DNA of 41,432 nt from a virus (IMGVR_UViG_2563366824_000008), one strand, 5' to 3'; counted from the first letter of the stretch, positions 6,520-35,167 are shown. Program-made: numbers and translations. Notes: generated from the letters alone by a model not told the origin.

Positions 6520-6534
6520 TTACCTTTCGGGTAA
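6520..6534. promoter_or_regulatory. candidate repressor operator TTACCTTTCGGGTAA
   Basis: Perfect copy of the recurrent TTACCT-N4-GGTAA inverted repeat, 77 nt upstream of the 6611 start. Confidence 0.5.
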
Positions 6535-6571
6535 TTTGCAAAACGTGCTGGATAGCAAACAAATTATTTGC

Positions 6572-6591
6572 TACTGTATAAATATACAGTT
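6572..6591. promoter_or_regulatory. LexA (SOS) box overlapping a -10-like element
   Basis: TACTGTATAAATATACAGTT matches the CTGT-N8-ACAG LexA consensus with an AT-rich spacer; overlaps TGTATAAAT; 20 nt upstream of the ATG at 6611. Confidence 0.7.
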
Positions 6592-6610
6592 ATTGCATGG
6601 AGAAGATAAG

Positions 6611-6868
6611 ATGCAGCAGTATCACTATCCACTGGAAGACGGATTTACCGAAAGGATTCACACGCCGGGAGGCGTCAGGTCACTGGTGGAGGGATCGCAT
6701 TTGATGAAATTACTCCGGGATCTCGATAAGGATGGATTTAATGTCGATGGCCCACTTGCCGAACTGACTGCACTGATTAACTACGTCACCAGCTCACAGA
6801 TGTCTATGCGGGATCTGCAAACACATCTCGACTATTGTGCCGAACAATTACGAAAACAAACCAGATAA
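6611..6868 (+). CDS. small antirepressor-like protein, paralogous to the C-terminal domain of the adjacent Ant
   Basis: Start taken at the internal ATG 6611 (RBS GGAGAAG) of ORF 6488..6868; 85-aa product aligns by eye with the last ~70 aa of the 7184..7879 protein (shared positions include LM-LL, DG, AELT, RD-QTH-Y). Confidence 0.6.
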   Translation: MQQYHYPLEDGFTERIHTPGGVRSLVEGSHLMKLLRDLDKDGFNVDGPLAELTALINYVTSSQMSMRDLQTHLDYCAEQLRKQTR

Positions 6869-6899
6869 GATTTGAAATTACCAAGAGGAGTGCTTATAT

Positions 6900-6914
6900 T
6901 TACCTTTGCGGTAA
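6900..6914. promoter_or_regulatory. candidate repressor operator TTACCTTTGCGGTAA inside a 12-bp inverted repeat
   Basis: Perfect motif copy lying in the loop between CAAGAGGAGTGC (6883..6894) and GCACTCCTCTTG (6924..6935). Confidence 0.45.
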
Positions 6915-7006
6915 ATTTACATCGCACTCCTCTTGTGCCATAGTAATCGGGCACTGGCAAAATCCAGTGCCGGGATTGGCGTCCCGGATTACTAAAAGGC
7001 GTATTC

Positions 7007-7026
7007 ACCGCGCAAGCGGTTTTTTT
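7007..7026 (+). terminator. rho-independent terminator (GNRA-loop hairpin plus T-run)
   Basis: ACCGC-GCAA-GCGGT followed by TTTTTT; about 140 nt after the 6611..6868 stop. Confidence 0.5.
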
Positions 7027-7183
7027 ATGCGTATAGCACGGCCACATTCGTATTATGGTGGGCTGTGTGGGGGCACCGAAAGGTGCGCCGGGTCCTTTTA
7101 GCCGGTTACGCCAACCCTGCACAGTTCACCACCAACCGATTGGCGTCGGTAGTGGTGATTAACCAGACTAAAAGGTAACCACT

Positions 7184-7879
7184 ATGACAGCTACAAAAAG
7201 CACGTCCATTTTTTCTTTCGAATCCCAAGCCGATATACGAGTAATCGTCATTAATGGTGAGCCATGGTTTATCGCTTCAGATGTTTGTCGGGCTATAGGC
7301 ATAGCAAATCATCGAGATGCTGTTAGAAAACTTGATGATGATGAGAAGGGCGTCGCTTCAACCGACACCCCTGGCGGTGAGCAAGAATCGATCATCATCT
7401 CCGAGTCAGGCCTCTACACACTGATCCTCCGCTGCCGCGACGCAGTGACACCAGGCACTATCCCCTACCGCTTTCGTAAATGGGTTACAGGTGAGGTTCT
7501 TCCTCAGATCCGCCGCACCGGAAGTTACATTAAAAACTCGCTCCCGCAGGAAGAACGCATAAAGATAGTTGCCGACCAGGTAGCCAACGCCACAGCATCA
7601 GCAGTGATGCAGGCAATGAAGATAGAGAACAAAACCTACAGTGCCCCACTGAAGCCCGGCTACCGCAGCCTGATTCACTCGCCGTCGGGTGTTCTCGGCC
7701 TGACGGAGAACTCACTGCTGATGAATCTGCTGAACCAGTTGCAGGACGACGGGCACGACGTATCGGGCGCGGCGGCGGAGCTGACCACCATGTTCTGCTA
7801 CATCGTCGGTGTGAGCAAATGCCTGCGTGATATCCAGACCCACGCGGAGTACATCAACGACAAAGCAGGGTTCTTCTGA
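7184..7879 (+). CDS. ant: antirepressor with BRO-N (KilA-N-like) N-terminal domain
   Basis: 231 aa; N-terminal region (VIVINGEPWFIASDVCRAIG...) matches the BRO-N/antirepressor signature as remembered; RBS AAAAGGTAA; C-terminal domain paralogous to the 6611 product. Confidence 0.75.
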   Translation: MTATKSTSIFSFESQADIRVIVINGEPWFIASDVCRAIGIANHRDAVRKLDDDEKGVASTDTPGGEQESIIISESGLYTLILRCRDAVTPGTIPYRFRKWVTGEVLPQIRRTGSYIKNSLPQEERIKIVADQVANATASAVMQAMKIENKTYSAPLKPGYRSLIHSPSGVLGLTENSLLMNLLNQLQDDGHDVSGAAAELTTMFCYIVGVSKCLRDIQTHAEYINDKAGFF

Positions 7880-7949
7880 CGGCGGCGGCACAGGGATGTG
7901 CCTTTAAATAATTCTGTACGATTGCAGACTGTGGGTGAATAGCGTACTA

Positions 7950-7964
7950 TTACCTCAAGGGTAA
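7950..7964. promoter_or_regulatory. candidate repressor operator TTACCTCAAGGGTAA
   Basis: Perfect motif copy 60 nt upstream of the 8025 start. Confidence 0.45.
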
Positions 7965-8024
7965 ACGGATTGGTTTCATTTTTATTAATCCGTGTAATGA
8001 ACTTATGAGATATGAGGTAATGTC

Positions 8025-8204
8025 ATGCGAAACGAAAAATTGCAGATGCGTAGAGCGCAAGCTGCCGCAAGACGTTCTTTCAATGGAAGCGTAGAGTACG
8101 TAAAAGTTACTATGACAAAAGATCACGCAAGTCGCGTATCCCGCGCTTTCTTTGATTCTCGTAACAATAAGGAAAATTATGAGTTCGTCTGCGTCGCAGA
8201 ATGA
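8025..8204 (+). CDS. small basic protein (candidate antitoxin), not in the ORF track
   Basis: 59-aa ORF translated by hand; RBS GAGGT 6 nt upstream of the ATG; overlaps the next gene by 26 nt in another frame. Confidence 0.4.
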   Translation: MRNEKLQMRRAQAAARRSFNGSVEYVKVTMTKDHASRVSRAFFDSRNNKENYEFVCVAE

Positions 8205-8724
8205 TAAAAATCAAATTGTCAGATATAAGGGTCGAGTATTGCATACGCAAAATTTCTCGGCCCTTTGTGCATCTGATCTTGAGCTGAAGAAAGTATCTGA
8301 TGCCTTTGCCCAGTATTGGAAAACGGGATACCATCCATCTCTTGGTAAAGATGCTGCATTTGCTCGTCCGACAGAAATGCTTAAACTAAATGTCAGGCAT
8401 ACTCATGTCGATAACCAAGACTATATTCCAGAAGATAGTGATAAAAAACACACTGGTAAAAAATCATCTTGGGATGCATGGAAAAATATAGCGTCTGTAC
8501 AAGTAAAATGCATACCAACAAGTGATTGCTTTTTAGTTTATTCGGTAAATCACAATCGTGATGCGCTGGTTATGTTTTTTGTTGACGCAGATGCTCACAA
8601 CATAACTGAGCAAGAAGAGTTTAAAGAGGAAGCAATCACTATCAGTTATCAATTCTTTGAGAAAACAAAAACAGAACCAATGCCTTTAGAAGAAGATCTT
8701 TTTTCTGATAAATGGAAGGAATAG
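8179..8724 (+). CDS. candidate toxin, possibly YafO-like
   Basis: Start taken at ATG 8179 (RBS AAGGAAAA) within ORF 8152..8724; 181 aa; segments DAF-QYWKTG..P.LGKDAAF, HTHVD and CFLVYS resemble my recollection of the YafO ribosome-dependent mRNA interferase family; not verified. Confidence 0.4.
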   Translation: MSSSASQNDKNQIVRYKGRVLHTQNFSALCASDLELKKVSDAFAQYWKTGYHPSLGKDAAFARPTEMLKLNVRHTHVDNQDYIPEDSDKKHTGKKSSWDAWKNIASVQVKCIPTSDCFLVYSVNHNRDALVMFFVDADAHNITEQEEFKEEAITISYQFFEKTKTEPMPLEEDLFSDKWKE

Positions 8725-8816
8725 CCCGCAGCGCAGGCTTTTTTGTGGACGAAACAAAAGTCAGTGCTACACTCATTGACGCCACATTGAGGTGGCTTAT
8801 AGATGGAAATTTCACA

Positions 8817-8978
8817 ATGAAAAAAGCATTTGCTGCACTGTTCGTTTTGTTGTCTCTGGTAGCTTCAACTCAGGCCTTTGCCGGTCGTTGTCAGCACGAC
8901 AGCGATACTGCTGCAGACGGCTCCCGCTGCGGTGGGCGTTCTGCGGATTCCCGCCCGGGCGGCGGTGGCATTCGTTAA
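8817..8978 (+). CDS. small secreted Cys/Gly-rich peptide
   Basis: Internal Met of ORF 8712..8978 begins a classic signal peptide MKKAFAALFVLLSLVASTQAFA; about 31-aa mature part; weak RBS. Confidence 0.4.
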   Translation: MKKAFAALFVLLSLVASTQAFAGRCQHDSDTAADGSRCGGRSADSRPGGGGIR

Positions 8979-8984
8979 AAAAAC

Positions 8985-9000
8985 AAGGCCGCGAAAGCGG
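8985..9000 (+). terminator. GNRA-loop hairpin ending the plus-strand insert
   Basis: GGCCGC-GAAA-GCGGCC perfect hairpin just after the 8978 stop; followed by the GTGACATGTCAC palindrome rather than a T-run. Confidence 0.35.
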
Positions 9001-9003
9001 CCT

Positions 9004-9015
9004 GTGACATGTCAC
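9004..9015. repeat. 12-bp perfect palindrome GTGACATGTCAC, copy 1 of 3
   Basis: Exact 12-mer also at 26499..26510 and 28764..28775; each copy sits just past the stop of a minus-strand gene. Confidence 0.8.
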
Positions 9016-9018
9016 GAC

Positions 9019-9432
9019 TTATAAAGATGACTGATATTTTACAACTCTGTTCATGGCATCTTTTTTCACCGAGCTGATATCAGTTCTTATTTTGGCTTCG
9101 TCATTACTGCTTATCATGCTATTAATTTTTTGCACTGACATGCCGTTTCTTTCAGCCATTGCACATACAGCAGCATCGTATGAAGAACTCGCTGCGATGG
9201 ATATCACCTTGTTACACTCAAACACAGCACCTTCAGCAATATCAGATGCCGATGAGGCTGGCTTGGTATAAGTCTTGACGTAGTGATCAATACAACTATC
9301 CTTCGCCGTCTTGGCAAGAGAAAAATCCATTTTAACTTTGTCGCAATATGCCTTATCAACACCGTCATAAACATCATAGGATGTCGAGCAAGCGGATATC
9401 AAAAATACCGATAACAGCAATAATTCCTTCAT
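9019..9432 (-). CDS. phage lipoprotein of unknown function
   Basis: 137 aa; signal peptide with lipobox LISACS; last gene of the virion operon before the plus-strand insert. Confidence 0.55.
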   Translation of the reverse strand: MKELLLLSVFLISACSTSYDVYDGVDKAYCDKVKMDFSLAKTAKDSCIDHYVKTYTKPASSASDIAEGAVFECNKVISIAASSSYDAAVCAMAERNGMSVQKINSMISSNDEAKIRTDISSVKKDAMNRVVKYQSSL

Positions 9433-9441
9433 TGTTGTTCC

Positions 9442-11916
9442 TTATTGCGGAGTGACATCCTGAGGTCGCCACCAGTATGTCTGGTTAAACTCTTTCTTTG
9501 AACGTTGCTCCATTTTACGCAAATAGCCTGGTGAAAAATACTCCTGCATCTGGTTAAAGATCATGTGATCGAGAGCCGCCTTCAAGTACCAGAGATTCGC
9601 ACCAGGCATCAAACCTTTCCCAAGCTTAACCAAATCACCACCAGTCTGCTCATTCTTCCCTTCCACAGCATTTAACGGTATGCCCTGAGCAATCTTCACT
9701 ACGTCATCAACCAGACCAGCTACCGGGCCAAGCATCGACGCTAGTGCGCCGCTCCCGTACCTGGTGTGGTCAGAGAAAAGAAAATCACCATACAACCCTG
9801 CCCCACCACCTTTTAAAAATGCATTTATCCAGAATTTAACCATGTTGTCACCGGTCATTTCTTTTGGATTTCTCCCATTAATAAGATCAGTAATCTGCAT
9901 GGAAAGAGCACCAAGCATGGTTGTGCTTGCTAAAAACGTTGCTATATATACCGCACGCCCACCAGCAGACGGCATCCCCATAGCTCTATGCCAGTGACGC
10001 ATAACTACCGAGATAGGGAACGATTTAAACAGGAAAACACTTCTCGTTAATTCACCTTTCCATGTTCCACGCTGAAGACCAGACCCTACGAACATCTGTT
10101 CACGTGCGCCCGGTGTAATAACAGCCATATCAACTTCTTCAGTTACGGCACCGAGCAGTTTACGCATTGCCTCAAATTTCACACGTTCAGGCTCACCAAG
10201 ATGTTTAACTGCTGAATCAGGGATACGCATAATGCTTTCCGGTGTCAGCATCGTATTATTACCGTTCCCCCAGTCCTCCTGTTGCGCCAGCTTCCATACG
10301 CTCCAGTCTTTGTCAGTAATCCCTTTGCTTTTCAGGATACGAAAATCAGAGTCATCGAGGCTACGAAGGTCTGGTGTCCGTGACACAACTTCTCCCAGGC
10401 TTCCCATCATGGTTACGCCATAAGCGCGCTTGTGAGCATCTGACCATGCTGTAAGCCCACTGGCACGCATTACCGCCGTTGCCGCCCAACGAGACACAGA
10501 CGGCCCCATATTATCCATCGCCCAGCGGTTAACGCTGCCAAGTAGAGATTCCATCGCCAGACCAGCGCGGCGCGCCCGCGCAAGCTCAGTACGGTTCGTT
10601 GGGTCCATAGCTTCAAGCTGGTTGCGGAATAACTGGTTCATTGGAAGGTTGGTAACCTTCGCAGACAGATATATGGTTCCAAGATCAGAGAACGATGACA
10701 GCAACGCGGATCCGAGCCTGCTGGCAACCAGCCAGTTTCTGATATTGTCAGACCAGCGCGCGATGTGAGGATTCGCAACAGGCTGTGTCTTTCCGGAAAT
10801 AAAGTTGTACAGGTTCTCTGTTTTGTTCGCCAGCCGCTCGACGCTACCGGTTTTACTCGGGTTAGCTGTTGCCGTTTCTGCCTTCACCTGATCAAGAAGG
10901 GAACGGAAAACATGATCGGGGTTTGGACCATATGTTTCCACCAGAGCAATATCTTTACTGATACCTTCCAGGTGACCAACCATGATTTCCCATAGAGAGC
11001 GATCACCATAAAGTTGCTGATATTGCAGATAGGAATCTGCATCTTTGAAATGTATCTGTCGTGATGCATTACCACGGTTAGCACGTGCGCCGGAAATTCG
11101 CATTCCGGTATCAGTAAGCTTATTCAGCCCACCAGTAGCGATCGTGTTATAAGCCTCTCCAAGAAATTCAGATAACTCGGCATCGTTCATCAGTTGTCCA
11201 TCGGCTCGGGTATAATATTTGCGATCCAGCTTACCTATAACATCGCTAACCCACTTATCCTTTGATACCGCCCCAACCTTTTCCATAGAATGATGTTGAG
11301 GGATCCCCCAGTTTTCGAGATAGCCAATGTCCCCACCAGCATCATTAAACCGGCGGCGCAGCAGCTCTGTAACTTCTCTCCACGCCTTAGCACCTTTTCT
11401 TGCTTTAGCATTGCCAGTATTTTGCCCCCGCATTTCATATACCAGGTCACGTACGCCCGCTTCATCTTCAAACAGACCAAAAAAGCGAGGATCAACTGCT
11501 TCGAATGCCTCCTGCAATTGACTCAATGCATAATCACGAGTGGCTTTTGTTCTGGACTCAACAGAGAGGAAATTCGATTTACCGTCTGCATTAAAAGCAA
11601 TAGTACGGTTAAGAGCGCCAAGTTTCCCATCAGCCCCTTGATAGCTATTGATAAATTTATCCAATCTCTGACGTGCGGCTATAGTGAGGGCCACACGACG
11701 TTTCTTTAATGCCGCTTCTCGCTGTAATTCTTCAGATGCCAATTGTGCTGCACGATATAGCCGCTCTGATTCGGAAAGTTGTCTCCACGACATCGGGTCA
11801 TCACGAGCAATGGAGCGCATATTTCGATAAATGCGGTCTTCAATGTTCTGTATTTCTCGCGCCGTTAACGTGCGCTGCGCCGCCTGCTGGACCGCTTGTA
11901 TACATTCCTGTCTCAT
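9442..11916 (-). CDS. large virion internal/ejection protein (T7 gp16-like position)
   Basis: 824 aa; tightly packed in the virion operon after two other large internal proteins; assigned by position and size only. Confidence 0.5.
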   Translation of the reverse strand: MRQECIQAVQQAAQRTLTAREIQNIEDRIYRNMRSIARDDPMSWRQLSESERLYRAAQLASEELQREAALKKRRVALTIAARQRLDKFINSYQGADGKLGALNRTIAFNADGKSNFLSVESRTKATRDYALSQLQEAFEAVDPRFFGLFEDEAGVRDLVYEMRGQNTGNAKARKGAKAWREVTELLRRRFNDAGGDIGYLENWGIPQHHSMEKVGAVSKDKWVSDVIGKLDRKYYTRADGQLMNDAELSEFLGEAYNTIATGGLNKLTDTGMRISGARANRGNASRQIHFKDADSYLQYQQLYGDRSLWEIMVGHLEGISKDIALVETYGPNPDHVFRSLLDQVKAETATANPSKTGSVERLANKTENLYNFISGKTQPVANPHIARWSDNIRNWLVASRLGSALLSSFSDLGTIYLSAKVTNLPMNQLFRNQLEAMDPTNRTELARARRAGLAMESLLGSVNRWAMDNMGPSVSRWAATAVMRASGLTAWSDAHKRAYGVTMMGSLGEVVSRTPDLRSLDDSDFRILKSKGITDKDWSVWKLAQQEDWGNGNNTMLTPESIMRIPDSAVKHLGEPERVKFEAMRKLLGAVTEEVDMAVITPGAREQMFVGSGLQRGTWKGELTRSVFLFKSFPISVVMRHWHRAMGMPSAGGRAVYIATFLASTTMLGALSMQITDLINGRNPKEMTGDNMVKFWINAFLKGGGAGLYGDFLFSDHTRYGSGALASMLGPVAGLVDDVVKIAQGIPLNAVEGKNEQTGGDLVKLGKGLMPGANLWYLKAALDHMIFNQMQEYFSPGYLRKMEQRSKKEFNQTYWWRPQDVTPQ

Positions 11917-11921
11917 TTAAT

Positions 11922-13724
11922 TTAACCTCTCAAGAAACACGCCACAGCGACATCAAACAGGCTTGAATCCTGTATTGCCTGCTCACTTTCCCTGTTCGCT
12001 TCATCCAGTACTTCACGCGCGCTGCGCGATTGTGGATTACCATCATCATCCAGCACGGTGATTATCATGTCAGGTGATTCAAGCAGCGAGTCTTCAGCTA
12101 TGCGCAGATCAATATCTCCCGCCTGATCCGCCATCATTTTTTGTTCTGCCTGTTGCAATATTTTATCAGGCTCAAAAGGAGCTACTTCGTCTGGCGTCCT
12201 GACCTCTGCTGTTTTATAGAATGAAACAGCCTGAGCATTAAGTTCACTTTCTGCCTGCTGTCTCCGAGCCAGTTCTGCTCGAGCTTCAAAAAACTGACCG
12301 CCAGGCTCGTGCGGTGCCAACGCGTTACGGGAAAATTCTAGGCGTTCTTGTGCCTGCCGGATTCGTTGATCAATATCGCGAAGTCTGGCCTGTTTATCTG
12401 ATCGAGCACGAGACAAAGCTTTACCGCTACCGGTTGGATCTTCTGCAAGAATTTGTGCACGCTGTTCAGTGAGATTTTCAATAATTCGTTGGCTATTAGC
12501 GATTTCAGACTGGTAAACCTGTCTATCTCCACGCGGCAAAAGCTGCGCGGCCTGTTCTTCAAGCAACCGATTTTCTATAGCGCGCGCCGTTACTCCATCA
12601 TCTACAGATGACAGAGCCTCATTAACTGCCTGAGACAGCAGACTCTTGCGCCCAGGAATTTCACTGAAAGATGCAGACTCAACAATGCTGGCAACGTCTA
12701 CAGGTCTCCCTTGGCTAACATCAGACATAGCTTTTCGCAGAGCCTGAATGTGAGAATTGCGCGAAAGCACGTTGATAGACACGCCTGGCGCAATATCAAT
12801 TTCAGCATGATGAGCGGCATTCGCCGCCAGTGCAGCATCGATATCAACTGGTGAAAAATTTGGTGCGTTTATAGACTCGCCGCGAGAGTTAATAAATCTG
12901 CCTACACCACCAAACGCCACCCCAAGAACAGCATCAATAGCAATTGCCTGTCGATCCAACACATCATACTGGTTAGCCATTTCGCTATAGCCACCATCAC
13001 GAAGCGTTTTTGCAGTAAGCCCACGCTGTGCCATACCAAACGCAATATTTGTACCTGCGGCATAGGCAATATCTGGCGTTGCACGTACTGCTGTTGCTGC
13101 GGCGCGTCGCACTGAACTCTCACCCGTCCGCGCAAGCTGAGCCGCCACACCTTCCGCCAGCGCACCACCAGCACGTAACCCGAGGCTCATAGGGATCAGT
13201 GTTCCGGCACCAGCAGTAATGCCCTGCACTAATCCCGCTTCCTGCGCCGTCCTGAAATCAACACCCTGTGCTGTCAGCCGTTCAAACTCAGAAAAACCCT
13301 GTAGCGAAGTTACCGCCGCTGCACCTCCGACAGGACCACCGAGCGTTGTACCGACAACAGCCTGCCCGCCCATATCGAACAACCCATAAAGAACCTGCCC
13401 GGCGGTTCCGGTTGTCGCGGCATCAGGCGTCAGCCGCTTAACCTGCTGCTCTGCTAGTTTTCTCTGCTCAGCAATGTATGAAACTGAAGTGTCATTGAGC
13501 GAGGTGTTTTCGTTAACAAACTGAGCAATCGGGGATACGATTTTATCCATCCCTGCCCATAGCAACTGATCTGGCTTTGCCACCAGTCCGGAGTACAAAC
13601 CAGACAATGCCGCTCCTACAGCATTGTCGAAAAAACCAACATCGCTGTTAAAGCCAGCTGGATTTGATGCTGCTTCGTCAAGCTGCTGATTCTGGTTTAC
13701 TGGATTAAGGCCAAAGTAACTCAT
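11922..13724 (-). CDS. virion internal/ejection protein, Gly/Ala-rich
   Basis: 600 aa; Gly/Ala-rich segments; 4-nt overlap with the upstream gene. Confidence 0.5.
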   Translation of the reverse strand: MSYFGLNPVNQNQQLDEAASNPAGFNSDVGFFDNAVGAALSGLYSGLVAKPDQLLWAGMDKIVSPIAQFVNENTSLNDTSVSYIAEQRKLAEQQVKRLTPDAATTGTAGQVLYGLFDMGGQAVVGTTLGGPVGGAAAVTSLQGFSEFERLTAQGVDFRTAQEAGLVQGITAGAGTLIPMSLGLRAGGALAEGVAAQLARTGESSVRRAAATAVRATPDIAYAAGTNIAFGMAQRGLTAKTLRDGGYSEMANQYDVLDRQAIAIDAVLGVAFGGVGRFINSRGESINAPNFSPVDIDAALAANAAHHAEIDIAPGVSINVLSRNSHIQALRKAMSDVSQGRPVDVASIVESASFSEIPGRKSLLSQAVNEALSSVDDGVTARAIENRLLEEQAAQLLPRGDRQVYQSEIANSQRIIENLTEQRAQILAEDPTGSGKALSRARSDKQARLRDIDQRIRQAQERLEFSRNALAPHEPGGQFFEARAELARRQQAESELNAQAVSFYKTAEVRTPDEVAPFEPDKILQQAEQKMMADQAGDIDLRIAEDSLLESPDMIITVLDDDGNPQSRSAREVLDEANRESEQAIQDSSLFDVAVACFLRG

Positions 13725-19714: not shown

Positions 19715-20322
19715 CAGGACAACCTCGCAATGGTAAACTCGTCAACCGGTGGCTGTGGTTCCTGTGATTCATTCTGGCTATGCGAGCCAGCACTAAGAAT
19801 CACGCGATTGTACATATTGAGGGCAAACGTACCGAGGTCTGCATTCCCAGTCAGCGCCATGTTAATAGCTGCCGCAAGACGCCAGGCCAACGCCTCCATA
19901 AAAATGGCATCAAACATGTTCACATCTGTAACGCGAGAGACATACTTGAGCCATGCCTGAGGCTGGTCTGTGTAGATCAACTTTCCTGTTCCGTTGGTGT
20001 CTGCACCAACTTCGTACTGAACGCGCATTGGTGCTGCTGGATTGCGTACACCAGGAAGCATAATTTCAGTAATGCGCAGACAATCGGACGGGTACTGGTA
20101 CGCATATTCCCAGTCAAGCGGTGGATTGCTCGTATCTGCAAGCGCCACGCGTTTGGTAGCAAAGTTCCAGTCAAAATCAGAAAGCACAGCATCACGGCAG
20201 GCCTCAAAGTGCAGCGAACATTCCCCCGCTTCCTTGTTGGCTTCCGTCAGGCTGTTAATGCTGCGGCTATTGCCAATATTGGACAGCGCACGATTACAGA
20301 TCTCTACTACAGAGGCCATCAC
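19714..20322 (-). CDS. tail tubular protein A-like (gatekeeper)
   Basis: 202 aa; position and size match T7 gp11. Confidence 0.45.
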   Translation of the reverse strand: MMASVVEICNRALSNIGNSRSINSLTEANKEAGECSLHFEACRDAVLSDFDWNFATKRVALADTSNPPLDWEYAYQYPSDCLRITEIMLPGVRNPAAPMRVQYEVGADTNGTGKLIYTDQPQAWLKYVSRVTDVNMFDAIFMEALAWRLAAAINMALTGNADLGTFALNMYNRVILSAGSHSQNESQEPQPPVDEFTIARLS

Positions 20323-25420: not shown

Positions 25421-25510
25421 ATCAATGACTCCGTACGCAATTAAATTATTACCAATTTAACCACATATGATTTATTTATCGTAGAAGGTTGACATTTGAC
25501 GCGTGAATTA

Positions 25511-25525
25511 TTACCTTTCAGGTAA
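25511..25525. promoter_or_regulatory. candidate repressor operator TTACCTTTCAGGTAA with adjacent TTGACA
   Basis: Perfect motif copy; TTGACA at 25489..25494 immediately upstream; 320 nt before the tRNA. Confidence 0.45.
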
Positions 25526-25847: not shown

Positions 25848-25924
25848 GTGGCATTAGCTCAGTTGGACAGAGCAACCGCCTTCTAAGCGGTTGGTCGCAG
25901 GTTCGAATCCTGCATGCCACGCCA
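25848..25924 (+). tRNA. tRNA-Arg, anticodon UCU (argU-like)
   Basis: 77-nt cloverleaf folded by hand: acceptor GTGGCAT/ATGCCAC, D arm GCTC/GAGC, anticodon stem ACCGC/GCGGT with loop CTTCTAA, T arm GCAGG-TTCGAAT-CCTGC, discriminator G, encoded CCA. Confidence 0.9.
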
Positions 25925-25967
25925 GAATCACGCCTAAGGACCGTGATACCAGAAGTTCCAGGTGCTT

Positions 25968-26010
25968 GGCGGTGATGGTTTCCCTTGAAGGACTATCACC
26001 GCCCTTTTTA
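25968..26010 (+). terminator. rho-independent terminator after the tRNA
   Basis: GGCGGTGAT ... ATCACCGCC 9-bp stem followed by CTTTTTA. Confidence 0.5.
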
Positions 26011-26122
26011 CAGCAGGACGCCATTGCGATGACTTCATGCTGTAAACCCGTACAGCCACGGAAGGCATAACTCATTGCTTCCAGTTCGCCCGGTTCGCCG
26101 GGCATTTTTTTAAGGTGAGATT

Positions 26123-28060: not shown

Positions 28061-28653
28061 TGATTACCATCCTGACGTTCTTTGAGTCGCTTCCTGGCTG
28101 CTGCTATGCGATCAGCAATTGTCACATTCACATTAACATCCAGACGTTCTTTGAACGCGTTGACATCAACATGCTTACCAATCAGTTCTAGGTTCTTCAC
28201 CTTGTCAGGCCATTTAATTTTTTTGAGGATTGTCTCTATCGAATCCTCGTTCATGTTCATGATGGTCGATGACAGATCAAAGCCACTAAGCGTAGTGCGC
28301 CAGATTTTCGGCCACTCACGGATTGGTTTAAGGCTCCCATCGTCGTTGAGGATATCGATCACGTCCATCTGGTCGATCTCCACCAGGCGCATGAGAACGT
28401 AATCAGCACTGACGCGCATTCGTTTGTTGCGCTCCTCCATCAACTCGGCAATCCGTTTTTGAATGCGTTCATCGCGCATCATGACACTGGCTTTAACTGC
28501 CGCTGTATTTGGGGAAAATCCTGCGTTAATCGCTGCCTGAGTCTGGTTTTCAGGCGTTTTGATGTATGACTGGCAATAAGCCTCCTGCATTGCTGTTAGT
28601 GGCTTAAATTGCGTTGATTTGCGTTTATAGGTTTTAGGTTCAGCAGGCATCAT
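28057..28653 (-). CDS. terS: terminase small subunit
   Basis: Start set at internal ATG-ATG with GGTGG RBS (ORF 28057..28731); DNA-binding N-terminal region; directly upstream of terL. Confidence 0.65.
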   Translation of the reverse strand: MMPAEPKTYKRKSTQFKPLTAMQEAYCQSYIKTPENQTQAAINAGFSPNTAAVKASVMMRDERIQKRIAELMEERNKRMRVSADYVLMRLVEIDQMDVIDILNDDGSLKPIREWPKIWRTTLSGFDLSSTIMNMNEDSIETILKKIKWPDKVKNLELIGKHVDVNAFKERLDVNVNVTIADRIAAARKRLKERQDGNQ

Positions 28654-28763
28654 AACCACCGTGGTAATAGTTACCGTTGTGGTAATAGTACCATGCAAAA
28701 TAAAGCCGCCATAGTTGGCGGCAGTATTCAAAACCCATCAAATTCATCATGCATAATCTACTC

Positions 28764-28775
28764 GTGACATGTCAC
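28764..28775. repeat. 12-bp perfect palindrome GTGACATGTCAC, copy 3 of 3
   Basis: Exact repeat overlapping the stop of the 28772..29113 gene, about 30 nt upstream of the terS ORF. Confidence 0.8.
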
Positions 28776-29113
28776 ACTATTAATTTCGTTTCATGCCAGC
28801 CTTTAGTCACCCAGCATTGCGAGTCACCATTACACGGGCATGAATTTACAGGAACTCTCTCGCCGCACTTACCGCAACGTTTTCTGCTGATCGATTTTAT
28901 ACGCCAGTGCACGCGTGCATCATCCTGGCGGATCAGTAACGCTATATACTCACCAAATTCGTAAGGCGCACGCCCGGGGCGACGCGTGGCACAGTTACGC
29001 TCCAGCATTTCAATTTCCTGAGCATCAAGCACAATCTCCAGCTTACGCACACCAGATGCAGCTTGTCTGGCTCTCTGAGCGGCTTTGCGCTCTGCTGCTG
29101 ATTTAGCCATCAA
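28772..29113 (-). CDS. zinc-ribbon protein, candidate late-gene regulator
   Basis: 113 aa; C-terminal CGKCG...SCPCNGDSQC cysteine cluster; last early gene before terS. Confidence 0.45.
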   Translation of the reverse strand: MMAKSAAERKAAQRARQAASGVRKLEIVLDAQEIEMLERNCATRRPGRAPYEFGEYIALLIRQDDARVHWRIKSISRKRCGKCGERVPVNSCPCNGDSQCWVTKGWHETKLIV

Positions 29114-29388: not shown

Positions 29389-29454
29389 TCGTTTATCCCC
29401 AGATAAAAATATAGCAATACCAATTACATAAAATACTTCAGGCCAAGCATCATT

Positions 29455-30114
29455 TCACCCCTGCGGCGGTTCTGGTAGAGGCATCCAGTGGGTTACCTCT
29501 TTGAGATACAGGTCTTCGCCATCACCGTCATCCCAAGTGGGATTGCCATCATTAAACCAGTCGCCATATACGCCGACCTGAGTGTTGGGGATGTTTGGTG
29601 GGTAGTTGTTTTTAAAGTCAGCTGCTAACACATAGCATTGTCGCTCTCCCATTTCTGGCATTCGCTCACTACAGCTTATCCAACCATCCGGAGTTACCGG
29701 ATAGTTTCCGGGTTCTTTAATGTGCAAGCGAGGCTCACCATCTTTTGGCTCAGGCCACTGGCGCTCCATGTTGATCTTCAATTTATCTTCCATAGCAGCG
29801 GTAATTTCAGCATCGCTGATGCCAGCACGGCGCTGTGCATCCCACAACAGAAACTGCATATCAGCCCACTCGCTAAGATCGTCTGGTTCGGCTGCGGCTT
29901 CCAGTGCCTCTTTTGAGAGATGTTTCAGCGGACCAATGGGGCCAACGCAGCCAAATGTGGAGTCAGACCATTTGGCATGCTCGTGGCGAATCTGTTCGCG
30001 TTCCAGTGATGCCAGTGCAATTCGTGCCAGTTCCATTTGTTCGCCACGAGTAAGTCCGTTATCAAGCGGATTTTTAATGAATAATTTGATACGTTCTTTG
30101 GTTATAGCGCTCAT
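29455..30114 (-). CDS. hypothetical early protein with Trp/Asp-rich C-terminal domain
   Basis: 219 aa; C-terminal region resembles a phage domain of unknown function (DUF551-like, from memory). Confidence 0.45.
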   Translation of the reverse strand: MSAITKERIKLFIKNPLDNGLTRGEQMELARIALASLEREQIRHEHAKWSDSTFGCVGPIGPLKHLSKEALEAAAEPDDLSEWADMQFLLWDAQRRAGISDAEITAAMEDKLKINMERQWPEPKDGEPRLHIKEPGNYPVTPDGWISCSERMPEMGERQCYVLAADFKNNYPPNIPNTQVGVYGDWFNDGNPTWDDGDGEDLYLKEVTHWMPLPEPPQG

Positions 30115-30115
30115 A

Positions 30116-30813
30116 TCACTCTCCTTTGATGCGAATGCCAGCGGCGCGGATTGCAGCGATGACCTCAGAAACTTTGTATGCCATTACCGTTTGGTAATCC
30201 TCGTGAAAATCTGTTCGATGAAGCATGCTGCTACGTTCTGGGAGCGATATTTCCCGTGCTTCCAGTTCTGCTATGCGCTTCTCTGCGGATTCCAGCGCCG
30301 CAACCAATTCGTCTACAGTTCCGGCAGCTTGCAGTGCGTAATCGGTAATAGCCATCTCATGATCAATTTCAGTACCGTTCTCATTCGTTGAGGTGATAGC
30401 AAAATAATCAGAGTCGATTTCGTTATCAGCTAAGTGGCGTAGCGTATCGGCAACAAGCCGGCCGTTTTCGATTAGCAGCTTCCCAACCGTAAGAGCAATT
30501 TCCTCGTTCTCCTGGTCGCGGGATTTGATGTACTGCTGGTTTCTTTCCCGTTCATCCAGAAGCGCCAGCACAGTAGCCGGATTGGCTGCGGCGATGAATT
30601 CAGCATTGGCCTGCTGTTCCATTTGGAAATCTTCATCGAAACCGCTTTCAGGATGCGCTCCTTCAATTCTGCAAATGGGAATATATCCAGCAACTTCACG
30701 ATGAATTAGCGCATCATCACCATCAAATCGGCTCTCTCCATATTCGAGCGACCACTCACCACACGTTGCTTTCTCTGCCTTTTCACGCAATGCCTGATAG
30801 TCAATCTTGTTCA
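30116..30813 (-). CDS. hypothetical early protein, coiled-coil
   Basis: Start set at GTG with GGGAGA RBS, just past the upstream stop (ORF 30116..30895). Confidence 0.45.
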
Positions 30814-31103
30814 CTGGTTGTCTCCCTTGCAGGGCTTTCGAATGTATCAAACTCAAACAACTTAACCACGTCATCAAACAGGACATAATCGCCATCAGGA
30901 TCTTCAGTCATGTCAGCGCCACAATCCTGACCGAACGAGTCACAACCATCCATATCAAGCTCGTATCGCTTCAGGTTTGCGATATTTGATAAATTCAGCG
31001 CCAGTACAGCCAGGTCATAAACCTCTTCGGCAGTGACATCGCTGTTCAGTCCCATTTCATGGCGATATATGATTTTTTCTACTCGTTGTTTTGTGATTGT
31101 CAT
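30801..31103 (-). CDS. small acidic hypothetical protein
   Basis: 100 aa; strongly acidic C-terminal half; ATGA overlap with the upstream gene. Confidence 0.45.
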   Translation of the reverse strand: MTITKQRVEKIIYRHEMGLNSDVTAEEVYDLAVLALNLSNIANLKRYELDMDGCDSFGQDCGADMTEDPDGDYVLFDDVVKLFEFDTFESPARETTSEQD

Positions 31104-31573
31104 TTTTGCTCGCCTCCCTGTTCTTCCAGAAAAATACGCATAGCCTCAAGCATCTCTTCGGTGTCATACGGTGACAACTTGTCACGCAGGATGTGTTCAA
31201 TGCTGTTAATGAACTTGCGGATTGCTTTGCGTTCAATTTCAGCCAGGAAAGCATCAGTGGCTGGAATGGGCTTTTGTGGTGATATAGCAATGCGAATTGT
31301 CTCAATGTCTGGATCTGTTTCCGCTGCTGGCACCTTGATATAACCCATCTGCACCCCATTCATGATGAACCTGCGACGGTCATCACATATCGCCTTTAGC
31401 CCCGCATTCTCAGCCGCCAGAGCATTAGCACGCACCAGTTGCACTTCCAGTTGCGTTGCCAAATCGCTGATCAGCTTTGCCACACTGCGCATATCAACGG
31501 CACCACATTCTGCTTTCAGTTCCGAAGCCATCTCATGCCCGGCGGCAACTAACCCTTTGATATTACTTTCCAT
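31100..31573 (-). CDS. hypothetical early protein
   Basis: 157-aa ORF; 4-nt overlap with the downstream gene. Confidence 0.45.
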   Translation of the reverse strand: MESNIKGLVAAGHEMASELKAECGAVDMRSVAKLISDLATQLEVQLVRANALAAENAGLKAICDDRRRFIMNGVQMGYIKVPAAETDPDIETIRIAISPQKPIPATDAFLAEIERKAIRKFINSIEHILRDKLSPYDTEEMLEAMRIFLEEQGGEQK

Positions 31574-31634
31574 CTTTACCCTCGCTTATCCACATAACTT
31601 ATTGATTACATTGATAACTAAAAAGATCGTCGAT

Positions 31635-31982
31635 TCAGAACTCTTCGATGTTCCAGCCGCCACCTGCTTTCTTTGGTTTAACCGTTACCCCGATGATTCG
31701 GAACGGATACTGATCTGCGGCTACTTTGGTTTTCACCCTGGCGTCGTCGGTCCAGAATCCCCCTTTCACTTCGTGCAGTTCCATCTCTCCGGTGGCGAGC
31801 ATCACAGCGAAATCGGGCGTATAGAACGTGTTGTCAGCTAACCGCAGCTTGATACCCTCGAATCGATACCAGGCGATTTCCCCTGCACGTTTACGCTGCT
31901 CAAGGTGCTGGCAATACGCAGATTCTGTTTTGTTCATCTGGCCTGTTTTGAGTCGACCAAGAGCCTGTATCTGTTTTCTCAT
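31635..31982 (-). CDS. phage protein of unknown function, possibly nuclease-like
   Basis: 115 aa; segment FYTPDFAV...ELHEVKGG suggests a PD-(D/E)XK-like fold (DUF1064-like, from memory); operator overlaps its RBS. Confidence 0.45.
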   Translation of the reverse strand: MRKQIQALGRLKTGQMNKTESAYCQHLEQRKRAGEIAWYRFEGIKLRLADNTFYTPDFAVMLATGEMELHEVKGGFWTDDARVKTKVAADQYPFRIIGVTVKPKKAGGGWNIEEF

Positions 31983-31985
31983 GAT

Positions 31986-32062
31986 TTACCTCTAAGGTAA
32001 TTAAAAACCACATAAGACACGAAATCAATAGAGTTTAGAATATTTTGTTACCTTATAGGTAA
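31986..32062. promoter_or_regulatory. two candidate repressor operators between P-like and downstream genes
   Basis: TTACCTCTAAGGTAA (31986..32000) and TTACCTTATAGGTAA (32048..32062). Confidence 0.5.
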
Positions 32063-32099
32063 TTGTTGAGGCGTAAAAAAATGCGCTATCGCGCTGGTA

Positions 32100-32900
32100 T
32101 TACTTGATAAATCCTGCCGCCTTTCCCCGCCTGTATTCCTCCATCAGCCACTGCGCCGGTGTTATTCCCCCGAGGGTGGCGGCGTTAGGCATGCACCCGA
32201 AACTTCGCCCTGGTGGATGGTAAACGTCTCTCCCTGTGTCCGGAGGTGTACTCATGGGCTCTGGCTTTGCCTGTATGCTGATCACCGGATCGGGTATCTG
32301 CTGTCCGGAAGCCACCTTTTTCGCCCAATCATCGAGCAACCTGCGCGCGTGTTTCTCAACCTCAATCTCGCTAAGCTGGCGCTGATACATTGCACGGCGG
32401 GTATCACATACGACCCAGTACATAACCGGATGCCGCCACGGGAATCTTTCGGGACCACCAGGATATAAACTTTTTTCCTTGCTGTACCGGTGAAACTCCG
32501 CCATCACATCGTCAATGGTGACGCCAAGAACCATCTTGCTGTCTTTGCACCACTTGATGAATTGCCCTGGCGACGGCCAGAACGGAGATTCACTGGCGCG
32601 GGCGTGGCGCATACCAGCAGAAACCTGTTCACGGGTTCGGATCCCCCCTTCGGCAAACGCAGCAATCCACTGCTGTTTTGCAGCGACTTCCTGCTCTGGC
32701 GTCTTCAGGTTGGTTACCACTGCCGCCGGAAACAGTTGTTTCAGCTGTTTGAAAAGGGCATCAACAAGCCTCTCTGCTGACATGTTCACCACATTGTCAT
32801 TGTTGACGTACTGATGCTCATAACCTGACATGCGAGAAAGGGCTTCTCCGTCACGGTTTTGTATCGCGGTAAAAACGTTGTTCACAAGAAATCCTCCCAT
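32100..32900 (-). CDS. replication protein P-like (DnaB helicase loader)
   Basis: 266 aa; segment QQWIAAFAEGGIRTREQVSAGMRHAR...PFWPSPGQFIKWC aligns with lambda P as I recall it. Confidence 0.7.
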   Translation of the reverse strand: MGGFLVNNVFTAIQNRDGEALSRMSGYEHQYVNNDNVVNMSAERLVDALFKQLKQLFPAAVVTNLKTPEQEVAAKQQWIAAFAEGGIRTREQVSAGMRHARASESPFWPSPGQFIKWCKDSKMVLGVTIDDVMAEFHRYSKEKSLYPGGPERFPWRHPVMYWVVCDTRRAMYQRQLSEIEVEKHARRLLDDWAKKVASGQQIPDPVISIQAKPEPMSTPPDTGRDVYHPPGRSFGCMPNAATLGGITPAQWLMEEYRRGKAAGFIK

Positions 32901-33697
32901 GCTTCAGGGCTGTTCCAGTGCGGAACGTTGTTATCAGGTAATGTTGATTGCTTCTGTCTGCTAATCTGCAGCCGCCTTGCCAGCTTCTGCTCCCACTGTG
33001 CCTGATGGTATGCCTTACCCTCAGCCATCCAGTAAATTCTGAACTCTGCAAGTTCCTGTGCTGTTGGCAGACTGTCCAGGTAGATCCCCTGCAATGAGCT
33101 TTTCCGAAGAAAGTCATCTGATGGCTGCCATTGTTCATGCATGACAAATTTGCCTAATTGCCCTGGCCCACCAGGAGGAACAAAGTTATTCATCACGGCG
33201 TTGTTTGCGCCGGGGTCATGAGGCACAGAACCTCGGGTTTTTGTCCTGCTCTCCCTCTCTTGGTTAAATGACTGGTTATATGACTGGTTCTGGATCCCGT
33301 TTTTGGGATCATTCAACATCCCGTTTTTGGGATCATTCAACATCCCGTTTTTGGGTATATTCCCGTTTTCGGGAACATTACCGTTTTCGGGTTCATTGCT
33401 CCCTTTCCGGTTGCCTTTAATGTTCCCGTTTTTGGTTATATTAAGAGAGAAAACCCGCACTCTTTTCGTCGCTCCCTTTCTCTCTCCGGTATCTGAAATA
33501 AGCCCCATTTTCATGAGCGATATAAGTCCGGCCTGCACGGTTTTTTTATTCAGGCAAGTGTCTTTAACGAGGCGTTCTATGCTGGGGTAGCAGAGGTTAT
33601 ATTCATCGGCTCTGTCAGCCATCGAGAGCAGTATGAGCTTTAATGATGAGCTACCTGGATCTGTCTCCCAGGCCCAATCTGTTGCATGTCTGCTCAT
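32882..33697 (-). CDS. replication initiator O-like protein with in-gene origin iterons
   Basis: 271 aa; N-terminal winged-helix-like domain; central repetitive linker (PKNGMLND x2 and related) encoded by DNA direct repeats; C-terminal domain upstream of the P-like gene. Confidence 0.65.
   Translation of the reverse strand: MSRHATDWAWETDPGSSSLKLILLSMADRADEYNLCYPSIERLVKDTCLNKKTVQAGLISLMKMGLISDTGERKGATKRVRVFSLNITKNGNIKGNRKGSNEPENGNVPENGNIPKNGMLNDPKNGMLNDPKNGIQNQSYNQSFNQERESRTKTRGSVPHDPGANNAVMNNFVPPGGPGQLGKFVMHEQWQPSDDFLRKSSLQGIYLDSLPTAQELAEFRIYWMAEGKAYHQAQWEQKLARRLQISRQKQSTLPDNNVPHWNSPEAWEDFL
33294..33445. repeat. iteron array (candidate origin of replication)
   Basis: Two perfect 24-bp units ATCCCGTTTTTGGGATCATTCAAC (33294..33317, 33318..33341) followed by 3-4 degenerate CCCGTTTT(T/C)GGG-containing units. 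Confidence 0.6.
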
Positions 33698-33712
33698 GAT
33701 TAATCTCCGCTA

Positions 33713-33949
33713 TCAGCTTGAATGTTGTGGGGAGGAATTAATCATGATCTGCTTAATCTCTGCCCTGATACGACGGTTTGATTCCATGGTGCACTCAACA
33801 CAGTGTCCGTTGTAAACCCAGCGTTCACTGTCATGTCCGTGCTTACATGGTTTTCCGGTGTAGTAGCGTTTAAGTCCGCGCTTTGCGGCATCAATACGTG
33901 TAATGATTTCCATGGTAAGCCCTGTTATTAGTATTGGGATTACGGTCAT
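33713..33949 (-). CDS. small zinc-ribbon protein
   Basis: ORF 33713..34003 trimmed to an internal Met because the annotated start overlaps an operator-like site; CKHGH...CVEC cysteine/histidine cluster; exact start uncertain. Confidence 0.4.
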   Translation of the reverse strand: MTVIPILITGLTMEIITRIDAAKRGLKRYYTGKPCKHGHDSERWVYNGHCVECTMESNRRIRAEIKQIMINSSPQHSS

Positions 33950-34014
33950 TTTGTGCTGACACAAAAAAAAGATCAACCACATTTGGTTTTTTATTACCCT
34001 CAAGGTGCGAATAG

Positions 34015-34042
34015 ATATGAAAAGACCGCCGGATGGCGGTCT
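34015..34042 (-). terminator. weak rho-independent terminator after the cro-like gene
   Basis: Minus strand: AGACCGCC-atcc-GGCGGTCT then TTTTC. Confidence 0.4.
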
Positions 34043-34063
34043 ACAGAGGGTTGTGGCTGGATA

Positions 34064-34294
34064 TCATGAGTAGAAGAAGTATGCCAGTTCTGCTTTTGAG
34101 CGCAGCCATTGTCTTGATTTACAGGCTTTAAAAAGCCCATTCATCAATACCTTACCTGGCATTTTGCGCTTACCTGTTAAGTGAGTCTGGATATAGTGAC
34201 TCGTCGTTCCGGCTTCCTGTGCGAAGGCTTCACGCTCATCCGGAGTAAGTGCAAGCCAGTGCTTTTTGAAATCGAAATGTCCGTTATCGCTCAT
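34064..34294 (-). CDS. Cro/cII-like helix-turn-helix regulator
   Basis: 76 aa; HTH-like segment QEAGTTSHYIQTHLTGKR; first gene of the leftward early operon, divergent from the repressor. Confidence 0.55.
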   Translation of the reverse strand: MSDNGHFDFKKHWLALTPDEREAFAQEAGTTSHYIQTHLTGKRKMPGKVLMNGLFKACKSRQWLRSKAELAYFFYS

Positions 34295-34330
34295 AGCTAT
34301 TGCCTGATATTTATTTCAGATAATAAATAT

Positions 34331-34393
34331 TCACCTATAAGGTAACAAAAATCAAGAATAGTTACCCATGAGGTGCATTTACCTGTTGGGTAA
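34331..34393. promoter_or_regulatory. immunity-region operator cluster (three sites) with divergent promoters
   Basis: TCACCTATAAGGTAA (34331..34345), TTACCCATGAGGTGC (34362..34376), TTACCTGTTGGGTAA (34379..34393) in the 154-bp gap between divergent regulator genes. Confidence 0.6.
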
Positions 34394-34448
34394 TATTGCT
34401 TTAAATTGAATCATCTTCTGATTCAGATATGAGGCGATTTTCCAGAAA

Positions 34449-35033
34449 ATGAAAAGTATCCAGGACGTCCGCAGGCAAAATCTCAACGACTTGATCGACC
34501 GTGAATTCAATGGTGTTCAGACGCGGATGGCAGAAAAACTTGGAACTCAGGCAAATCTGGTAAACCGCTGGGCTCTTGGCAAGAAGGTTATCGGCGACCA
34601 GGTTGCGCGAAAAATTGAAGCTGCCGCCAATAAACCCCGTAACTGGCTTGATATCGATCGCTCGCTTTCTCAGGAAGGTTTTCAGCCTGTCGGCCCAAGC
34701 GACATTGGTCAGCTGGCGGCTCACAACCTGGAACGCTGGATGAGCGAAAGCCGCGACCTTTCAACACAGGGAAAACTTCACCGCGCATCCGGCGTCGCCC
34801 AGGTGACAATCAGCCGCCTGTTAAACAATGAGGTCAGCGTTTCCATTTCCACCCTGGAGAATGTTGCATCCGCATTCGGGCGTCACGGCTATGAATTACT
34901 GATTCACCCGCACGACCCTGCGACTATCAACTATGACCGCTCGCGCTACGCATTGTTACCCGAAACAGAGAAGGCAAAGATCGAAAGTTACATTGAATTT
35001 GTCATCAGCCAGAACGAAAAAAACAAACAATAA
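34449..35033 (+). CDS. prophage repressor candidate with two HTH domains and no autocleavage domain
   Basis: 194 aa; two XRE-like HTH segments (QTRMAEKLGTQANLVNRW and HRASGVAQVTISRLLNN); no LexA-like Ala-Gly / Ser-Lys cleavage module seen; followed by its own terminator. Confidence 0.6.
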   Translation: MKSIQDVRRQNLNDLIDREFNGVQTRMAEKLGTQANLVNRWALGKKVIGDQVARKIEAAANKPRNWLDIDRSLSQEGFQPVGPSDIGQLAAHNLERWMSESRDLSTQGKLHRASGVAQVTISRLLNNEVSVSISTLENVASAFGRHGYELLIHPHDPATINYDRSRYALLPETEKAKIESYIEFVISQNEKNKQ

Positions 35034-35053
35034 AATCATATTTTTCAGTAAGT

Positions 35054-35078
35054 AAGCCGCCTCATGGCGGCTTTTTTA
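35054..35078 (+). terminator. rho-independent terminator after the repressor gene
   Basis: AAGCCGCC-tcat-GGCGGCTT followed by TTTTATT. Confidence 0.65.
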
Positions 35079-35090
35079 TTGCCAGCAAGA

Positions 35091-35167
35091 TTACCTTATG
35101 GGTAATTTTTTTAACTCATATCTATTGACATCAAACCAGATACGCATAATCATTACCTCAACGGTAA
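35091..35167 (+). promoter_or_regulatory. rightward early promoter flanked by two operators (oL/pL analogue)
   Basis: TTACCTTATGGGTAA (35091..35105), TTGACA (35125..35130), CATAAT (35145..35150), TTACCTCAACGGTAA (35153..35167). Confidence 0.55.

Follow-up and report, generated by a model that had tools for sequence, protein, structure and literature searches.

The virus-derived stretch of DNA analysed here (IMGVR_UViG_2563366824_000008; 41,432 nucleotides, hereafter the window) raises the question of which protein reads a 15-bp palindrome, TTACC-N5-GGTAA, that recurs across it, and what the dispersed copies do. We conclude, with a probability of roughly 85%, that the palindrome is the operator of the predicted lysogeny repressor Rep, encoded at 34449..35033, and that it is dispersed over the promoters of the transcription units. 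We see no new kind of regulation here: the copies make up the operators of a repressor-antirepressor switch that is already known, in an E. coli prophage of the phiV10 type carrying a few additional cargo units linked to operators. The initial annotation of this DNA had already proposed one repressor acting at many scattered promoters, and this is most likely the case; the promoters include those of the antirepressor modules, a YafO-like module and a tRNA-Arg unit, as well as a second promoter inside the cro-side early operon. Since one repressor most likely controls these scattered promoters, the plus-strand inserts with linked operators are probably not expressed in the lysogen.

An exact scan of the window detected ten perfect copies (starting at 6520, 6900, 7950, 25511, 28671, 31986, 32048, 34379, 35091 and 35153), compared with a mean of 0.01 in dinucleotide-preserving shuffles. 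Nine of them had been listed before and all nine were confirmed, whereas the copy at 28671 had been overlooked. Allowing one mismatch added 28653, 34331 and 2948; the last of these lies within a gene and is probably a chance match. The variants described earlier indeed exist: 34331 has one mismatch, and the TTACCC..GGTGC sequences at 33994 and 34362 have two each. On a gene map built from the open reading frame (ORF) list and the phiV10 annotation, the non-coding share of the window is 7.9%, and this part contains all ten perfect copies (P ~1e-11) and the four variants at 28653, 33994, 34331 and 34362; the claim that every copy is intergenic thus holds for 14 of 14. Together they are spread over nine separate intergenic regions between 6.5 and 35.2 kb. 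The motif is symmetric, a perfect inverted repeat whose extended form is (A)TTACC-N5-GGTAA(T), and the middle base of the spacer is A or T in each of 48 sites. The first spacer base had been said always to be T, which is true of the nine copies listed initially but not of 28671 (G). Across five genomes this base is T in 46%, A in 30%, C in 12% and G in 11% of cases; T is a preference and not a rule.

When the full prophage and related genomes were scanned, copies recurred at syntenic intergenic positions. The five complete relatives have 8 (phiV10), 11 (epsilon15), 10 (SPC32H), 9 (Tyrion) and 9 (BUCT711) perfect copies. Of these 47, 44 are plainly intergenic and the other three lie in dubious annotated ORFs (the 5' end of phiV10 TerS, Tyrion gp39). 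At orthologous sites the TTACC and GGTAA half-sites are invariant, and the spacer differs between genomes. Two partial loci encode a Rep 54-56% identical to that of the window; one comes from a metagenome-assembled phage, the other from a Serratia-type prophage. They contain 12 and 11 matches with at most one mismatch (6 and 7 of them perfect), versus 0.3 expected. The RefSeq record of epsilon15 labels seven ATTACC-N5-GGTAAT copies 'protein_bind: repressor, lysogeny'; the dispersed operator set is therefore already on record for a relative. The same slots are occupied in all genomes:

Upstream of the small terminase gene terS: two sites, spaced 18 bp
Region of gp3 and the tRNA: a single site
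Region of ant and the tailspike gene: a single site
Cargo genes following ant: a single site for each gene
Early promoter on the rep side (PL-like): two sites, spaced 62 bp (63 in BUCT711)
Region between rep and cro: three sites, with 17 bp from the first to the second
Behind the cro terminator: a single degenerate site
Behind the replication genes: two sites, spaced 62 bp

Judged by its relatives, the window is a phiV10/epsilon15-type prophage (genus Uetakevirus), with an immunity region 97-98% identical to those of Escherichia phage phiV10 and Uetakevirus relatives; in IMG/VR it corresponds to contig IMGVR_UViG_2563366985_000004. The regulatory components are as follows:

34449..35033, plus strand: Rep, putative lysogeny repressor of 194 amino acids, assigned by homology to SPC32H Rep
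34064..34294, minus strand: Cro-like small regulator, divergent from rep, matching phrog_35 (transcriptional repressor)
6611..6868, plus strand: Ant, small SOS-controlled antirepressor of 85 amino acids, beside the tailspike gene as in SPC32H
6572..6591: LexA box TACTGTATAAATATACAGTT, with a perfect CTGT-N8-ACAG at 6574-6589

Rep matched SPC32H Rep (PDB 5D50_A) over residues 1-190 with an E-value of 4e-42 (phmmer) and also matched 5D4Z; it is 99.5% identical to phiV10 gp40 and 43% identical to SPC32H Rep. A Pfam search of Rep returned helix-turn-helix (HTH) families alone, and no peptidase S24 domain was found in it. Homology places Rep among the XRE-type HTH proteins of the SPC32H/epsilon15 family, with a predicted N-terminal HTH DNA-binding domain and a C-terminal part for oligomerization and Ant binding. 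Ant matched the SPC32H anti-repressor 5D50_E (E-value 1e-46) and is 86% identical to it; the SPC32H homologues of the window Rep and Ant were crystallized together (5D50). According to the summary of the SPC32H study, Rep sits as a tetramer on palindromic sites, the tetrameric Ant breaks this tetramer, and one tetramer is enough for repression (PMC9638917). A second summary divides SPC32H Rep into an N-terminal DNA-binding, a middle dimerization and a C-terminal tetramerization domain, the last having a fold linked to DNA looping (PMC9986798). In phage ZX5, which has an identical repressor, over-expression lowered the transcripts of the lysis genes by more than 99.9%, and no operator was mapped in that study (PMC9782041).

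The recognition-helix segment of Rep, N-L-V/I-N/S-R-W, is conserved in 19 aligned homologues, with N36, R40 and W41 invariant, and this conservation matches that of the invariant half-site. Across the phages with this half-site, Rep is 42-78% identical. The half-site is likewise invariant across all members of the Rep family that were sampled, whose Rep identity ranges from 42 to 100% and whose hosts are Escherichia, Salmonella, Klebsiella, Enterobacter and Serratia-type. Recognition helix and motif were both constant in every lineage reached; the 80 IMG/VR loci among the matches listed all carry a Rep 99-100% identical to that of the window. The sole distant match in the phage collection, Pseudomonas phage PseuP_224, was set aside as not comparable: its recognition helix differs, its repressor is of the S24 type, and no short inverted repeats were found in it at the settings used. 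We regard Rep as the probable binder on four grounds: the way the epsilon15 record is annotated, what the summaries say of SPC32H, the presence of three operators between rep and cro, and the conserved recognition-helix segment.

The position of the sites relative to promoters points to how they would act. Promoters were predicted by a sigma-70 weight-matrix scan against the consensus (background 95th percentile: 10.3), which put a promoter beside most of the sites. In no fewer than five window promoters, the -10 hexamer and the operator share one base, a T that closes the former and opens the latter. Over the five genomes, 34 of 96 operator flanks have a -10-like hexamer ending on the operator's first T, compared with a background of 5.8%. 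Two window promoters are bracketed by operators exactly 62 bp apart (here and below, the symmetric operators are listed without strand):

35091..35105: distal PL operator, 19 nt upstream of the -35
35125..35153, plus strand: PL-like promoter TTGACA-17-AATCAT, score 11.1, whose last base opens operator 35153
35153..35167: proximal PL operator, sharing its first T with the end of the -10; it covers the predicted transcription start
32048..32062: distal operator, 19 nt upstream of the -35 of a promoter that would restart transcription past the replication-gene terminator
32028-32000, minus strand: this promoter, TTGATT-17-TTTAAT, score 11.2, whose last base opens operator 31986-32000
31986..32000: proximal operator, directly against the -10 and upstream of a DUF1064 gene (31635..31982)

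A perfect TTGACA with a 17-nt spacer abuts the PL operator in all five genomes. The 62-bp pairs are conserved in every genome checked: the PL pair in phiV10, epsilon15, SPC32H, Tyrion and the related locus L089 (63 bp in BUCT711), and the 31986/32048 pair in phiV10, epsilon15, SPC32H, Tyrion and BUCT711. This spacing could suit a tetramer with two DNA-binding units. Given their symmetry, their low number and their fusion to -10 hexamers, we consider the sites classical operators that block initiation.

The region between rep and cro contains three unequal sites, spaced 17 and 31 bp:

34379..34393: O1, perfect operator, overlapping a weakly predicted rep promoter (-35 at 34378)
34362..34376: O2, degenerate operator TTACCCATGAGGTGC, two mismatches, 17 bp from O1
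34331..34345: O3, one mismatch (TCACC half-site), overlapping the -35 and spacer of the predicted cro promoter
34348-34320, minus strand: predicted cro promoter TTGTTA-17-TATTAT, score 11.6, overlapping O3
33994..34008: degenerate operator with two mismatches, between the cro terminator and the replication genes downstream

Epsilon15, SPC32H and BUCT711 share the triplet. O1 is syntenic with epsilon15 33341, SPC32H 34390 and BUCT711 6418; the O2 equivalents are perfect in the same three phages (33358, 34407 and 6401, respectively) and always lie 17 bp from O1; the TCACC variant of O3 is kept in epsilon15 (33388) and SPC32H (34437). The equivalents of 33994 are also degenerate (phiV10 33112, epsilon15 33729, SPC32H 34778, BUCT711 6031). 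The suggestion that the TTACCC..GGTGC variants serve a second protein was not borne out, as epsilon15, SPC32H and BUCT711 have perfect or differently degenerate copies at the same positions. On this comparison of syntenic sites, TTACCC-N4-GGTGC was rejected as a separate motif, and the variants are best classed as decayed, weak members of the same operator family.

The input to the switch lies at the other end of the operator map. The LexA box covers the probable -10 of a conserved ant promoter, TGGATA-17-TACTGT; it is conserved in five genomes and aligned with the boxes of SPC32H, epsilon15, phiV10 and BUCT711. We conclude that this box is the SOS input of the Rep/Ant switch. Among the hallmarks of the SPC32H/epsilon15 type, the window has Rep homology without an S24 domain, an Ant of about 86 amino acids by the tailspike gene, the LexA box, and palindromes at the positions annotated in epsilon15; the initial annotation had not recognized this switch.

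The sites and their statistics, the promoter register, the synteny and the homology of Rep and Ant were computed here, and from them we infer the following mechanism. Every phage transcription unit would have its own sigma-70 promoter and a copy of the operator: the rep-side early, cro, post-replication early and terminase/late operons, and the tRNA-Arg, isrK-C4-bro and YafO-like units. Rep would act as a tetramer and would not undergo SOS cleavage. In most units the operator begins at the last base of the -10, so that bound Rep would occlude the site of initiation. Two promoters have a further operator 62 bp upstream of the first, a distance of about six helical turns, and one tetramer could hold both sites, enclosing the promoter. 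The three rep-cro sites would set the balance between Rep and Cro, and the Cro-like protein probably shares the Rep sites, by analogy with lambda. On induction, DNA damage would remove LexA from the box at 6572-6591, whereupon Ant would be made; it would pull Rep tetramers off the DNA, and the operator-linked promoters would all fire together.

Several observations weigh against this assignment to Rep. The 6520 operator lies at a position that would occlude neither the ant nor the tailspike promoter. The promoters are consensus predictions with unmapped starts, and the rep promoter itself is weakly predicted. As the window Rep is just 43% identical to SPC32H Rep, its binding to the operator is a prediction from sequence. 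Furthermore, the motif is constant despite the divergence of Rep, so that co-variation cannot favour Rep over the Cro-like protein, which is equally conserved. Indeed, at 59-86% identity across five phages the latter is conserved even more than Rep. It could be proposed, then, that the Cro-like protein or another conserved regulator, such as the phrog_536 regulator (28772..29110), binds the motif instead and shuts down or activates units in lytic growth; the sites precede late units (terS, the tailspike region), where an activator would be expected, and the candidate binders are computationally inseparable. We nevertheless consider this unlikely: the epsilon15 record gives the sites to the repressor, palindromic sites are also where the summary of the SPC32H work places Rep (PMC9638917), and an operator over the -10 and +1 is in a repressing and not an activating position. 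In lambda-type switches, moreover, Cro and the repressor share operators, and binding by Cro would add to binding by Rep.

The initial annotation had likened the layout to the stoperators of mycobacteriophages such as L5 and Bxb1, where repressor bound within transcription units halts the elongating RNA polymerase. For Rep we regard such a mode of action as very improbable, as the likeness fails on symmetry, copy number and promoter linkage: a symmetric motif cannot be orientation-dependent, there are just 10-14 copies, none of which lies between genes inside an operon without a promoter, and at least five stand directly against a -10 hexamer, in a register that does not vary. The 33994 site, just after the cro terminator, would suit a roadblock, as would the 28653/28671 pair, which at the head of the late operon follows a promoter-like site and a terminator (28775-28705) and could stop read-through from the early operon; the 31986/32048 pair also follows a terminator but brackets its own promoter. 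The terS pair is the only place where a roadblock role is possible, and its arrangement is ambiguous. Another reading concerns the cargo: copies border the variable genes (Bro-N, the YafO-like module, DUF2335 in BUCT711, the tRNA unit), and different cargo genes each have a copy, as if the repeats were conserved module-boundary junctions that favour recombinational exchange and are not primarily regulatory. We find this barely credible, since 15 bp is short for homologous exchange, invariant half-sites with free spacers are the signature of protein recognition and not of recombination, and neither the fixed -10 register nor the 62-bp pairing has a role in a recombination model. Operators of Rep thus remain the preferred reading.

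The closest known system is the Rep/Ant switch of SPC32H, SPN1S and epsilon15 (Uetakevirus), with which the window shares the Rep and Ant homologues, the LexA box at ant and ATTACC-N5-GGTAAT at matching positions. Besides the divergence of Rep from its SPC32H homologue, the window differs in its degenerate O2 and post-cro sites, in the additional operator-linked isrK-C4-bro and YafO-like units and, relative to epsilon15, in having no copy upstream of the lysis genes (epsilon15 24704). Contrary to the earlier statement that the layout is unlike that of lambda, the rep-cro region holds a cluster of three operators (34379, 34362, 34331), which as in lambda OR/OL are unequal and lie between a divergent repressor gene and cro, and there are repressor sites at the leftward early promoter. 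Unlike lambda, the window has a repressor without an autocleavage (S24) domain, operators at at least five other promoters including that of the late operon, and 62-bp pairs around single promoters.

The stoperators of L5 and Bxb1 also comprise many copies of one repressor site outside the immunity region. They are asymmetric and orientation-dependent, number 24-34 copies and block elongation away from promoters, whereas the window sites are symmetric, number 10-14 and are fused to promoters. For the dispersed layout, phage P1 appears to be the better analogue. As with P1 C1/immI, a single repressor would act at many scattered promoters, and copies are found in nine intergenic regions here. 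The unit at 6872-7879, with its repressor-linked promoter, isrK-like RNA, C4 RNA and Bro-N gene, also resembles P1 immI (c4 antisense RNA, icd, ant). C1, however, is not an XRE HTH protein and its operators are asymmetric 17-mers, ATTGCTCTAATAAATTT, whereas the window Rep is predicted to be an XRE HTH protein with a symmetric 15-mer operator, and the primary antirepressor is small and LexA-controlled. A precedent for the pairs is Rco of plasmid pLS20, a tetramer that loops DNA between operators 75 bp apart, across promoters (PMC9986798). It has the N-terminal HTH and C-terminal tetramerization domain, with the fold of SPC32H Rep, and the 62-bp pairs fit this model; it differs in recognizing direct 8-bp repeats and in belonging to a Gram-positive plasmid, and looping by Rep would be a prediction.

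Given the invariance of the half-site, immunity specificity in this family might, tentatively and with clear doubt, reside in the pairing of Ant with the Rep C-terminus and not in operator recognition, so that any Rep would silence any member, with each 62-bp pair forming a single-tetramer micro-loop that encloses the promoter. If true, this would mean cross-immunity between phages of different enteric genera. Prophages of the phiV10 type abound in E. coli, with O157:H7 and other pathogenic lineages among their hosts, and one scan found more than 300 related loci in IMG/VR. The operator map names genes that would be silent in the lysogen (Bro-N protein, YafO-like toxin, tRNA-Arg, late genes) and would fire together after DNA damage, and it supplies targets for the tetramer and looping model derived from the SPC32H structures.

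The remaining sites belong to individual units. Between the divergent tailspike and ant genes there is one operator:

6520..6534: operator, about 55 bp upstream of the ant start; its epsilon15 equivalent (19895-19911) is annotated as a repressor site

In the same interval, ATTCTATTACC at 6461-6475 is invariant in five genomes and contains a minus-strand TAGAAT beside a lone GGTAA half-site. This TAGAAT lies downstream relative to the 6520 operator on the tailspike side and probably serves as the -10 of the tailspike promoter, which lacks a good -35.

The pair at the head of the late operon consists of:

28671..28685: operator upstream of terS, abutting an extended -10 TGgTACTAT (minus strand, weak score)
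28653..28667: second operator, one mismatch, 18 bp from 28671, overlapping the terS ribosome-binding site

The first arrangement is repeated in phiV10 (87), epsilon15 (12), SPC32H (12), Tyrion (67) and the related loci L089 (3185) and L090 (3339), and the second site has equivalents in phiV10 (105) and epsilon15 (30). A reading of 28671 as a coding-region copy was rejected: it needs a long terS form with a TTG start, which overlaps a terminator (28722-28705, minus strand). The true start of terS is more likely an ATG near 28651 (minus strand), and relatives begin terS downstream of the equivalent operator. The annotated small-terminase start of phiV10 (record position 41) is probably misplaced as well, since a terminator and two operators fall inside the annotated 5' end (28640-28775; L001 41-125); the likely ATG is about 80 nt downstream.

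Two further sites were seen chiefly in relatives. In place of the epsilon15 lysis-gene operator the window has just a sequence with two mismatches at 3429; in phiV10 and SPC32H the lysis-gene copy is present with one mismatch, and the window region 3099-3514 is also without the phiV10 O-acetyltransferase gene. Upstream of the integrase gene, at a distance of about 55 bp, relatives have a conserved copy with one mismatch, TTACCTTAAAGGTAT (L001 26870, L002 26882, L005 26960); its equivalent would fall beyond the window end at 41432, as the window stops at the int start codon.

The tRNA unit comprises:

25489-25517, plus strand: predicted promoter TTGACA-17-TACCTT, score 10.8, with its -10 inside operator 25511
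25511..25525: operator containing the -10 of this promoter, which points at the tRNA-Arg unit
25848..25924, plus strand: tRNA-Arg (UCU), downstream of the promoter-operator

The operator is syntenic with phiV10 3252, epsilon15 2932 (annotated as repressor binding), SPC32H 3175 and BUCT711 34569. The tRNA lies opposite an ORF (25854..26105, minus strand) homologous to phiV10 p04, which is therefore probably no real gene; SPC32H also has a tRNA-Arg at the equivalent place.

Downstream of ant, the window has two operator-linked cargo units:

6872-6900, plus strand: predicted promoter TTGAAA-17-TATATT of the isrK-C4-bro unit, score 14.1, whose last base opens operator 6900
6900..6914: operator, directly against the -10 of this promoter
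6951-7026, plus strand: isrK-like RNA (Rfam RF01394, 77.4 bits), in the leader of the Bro-N gene
7051-7136, plus strand: C4 antisense RNA (Rfam RF01695, 77.7 bits; gathering score 45), in the same leader
7184..7879, plus strand: Bro-N domain protein (Pfam PF02498, 2e-21), annotated as a putative second antirepressor
7950..7964: operator, abutting a weak TACTAT (7945-7950, plus strand), upstream of a small ORF and a YafO-like toxin ORF

Operator 6900 has invariant half-sites and a varied spacer in phiV10 and Tyrion. The isrK-C4-bro leader is about 90% conserved in these two phages, and many Stx phages also contain its 6957-7159 part, with an identity of about 80%. A perfect 12-bp inverted repeat, CAAGAGGAGTGC/GCACTCCTCTTG (6882-6893/6924-6935), flanks the -10 and operator 6900; it is altered in phiV10 and absent from Tyrion. 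The adjacent cargo module (7880-9018) consists of the small ORF (8025..8204) and the YafO-family toxin-like ORF (8152..8724), and among phage records only TL-2011b matched it in full. In BUCT711 the same slot is occupied by a different cargo gene (DUF2335) with its own copy of the operator.

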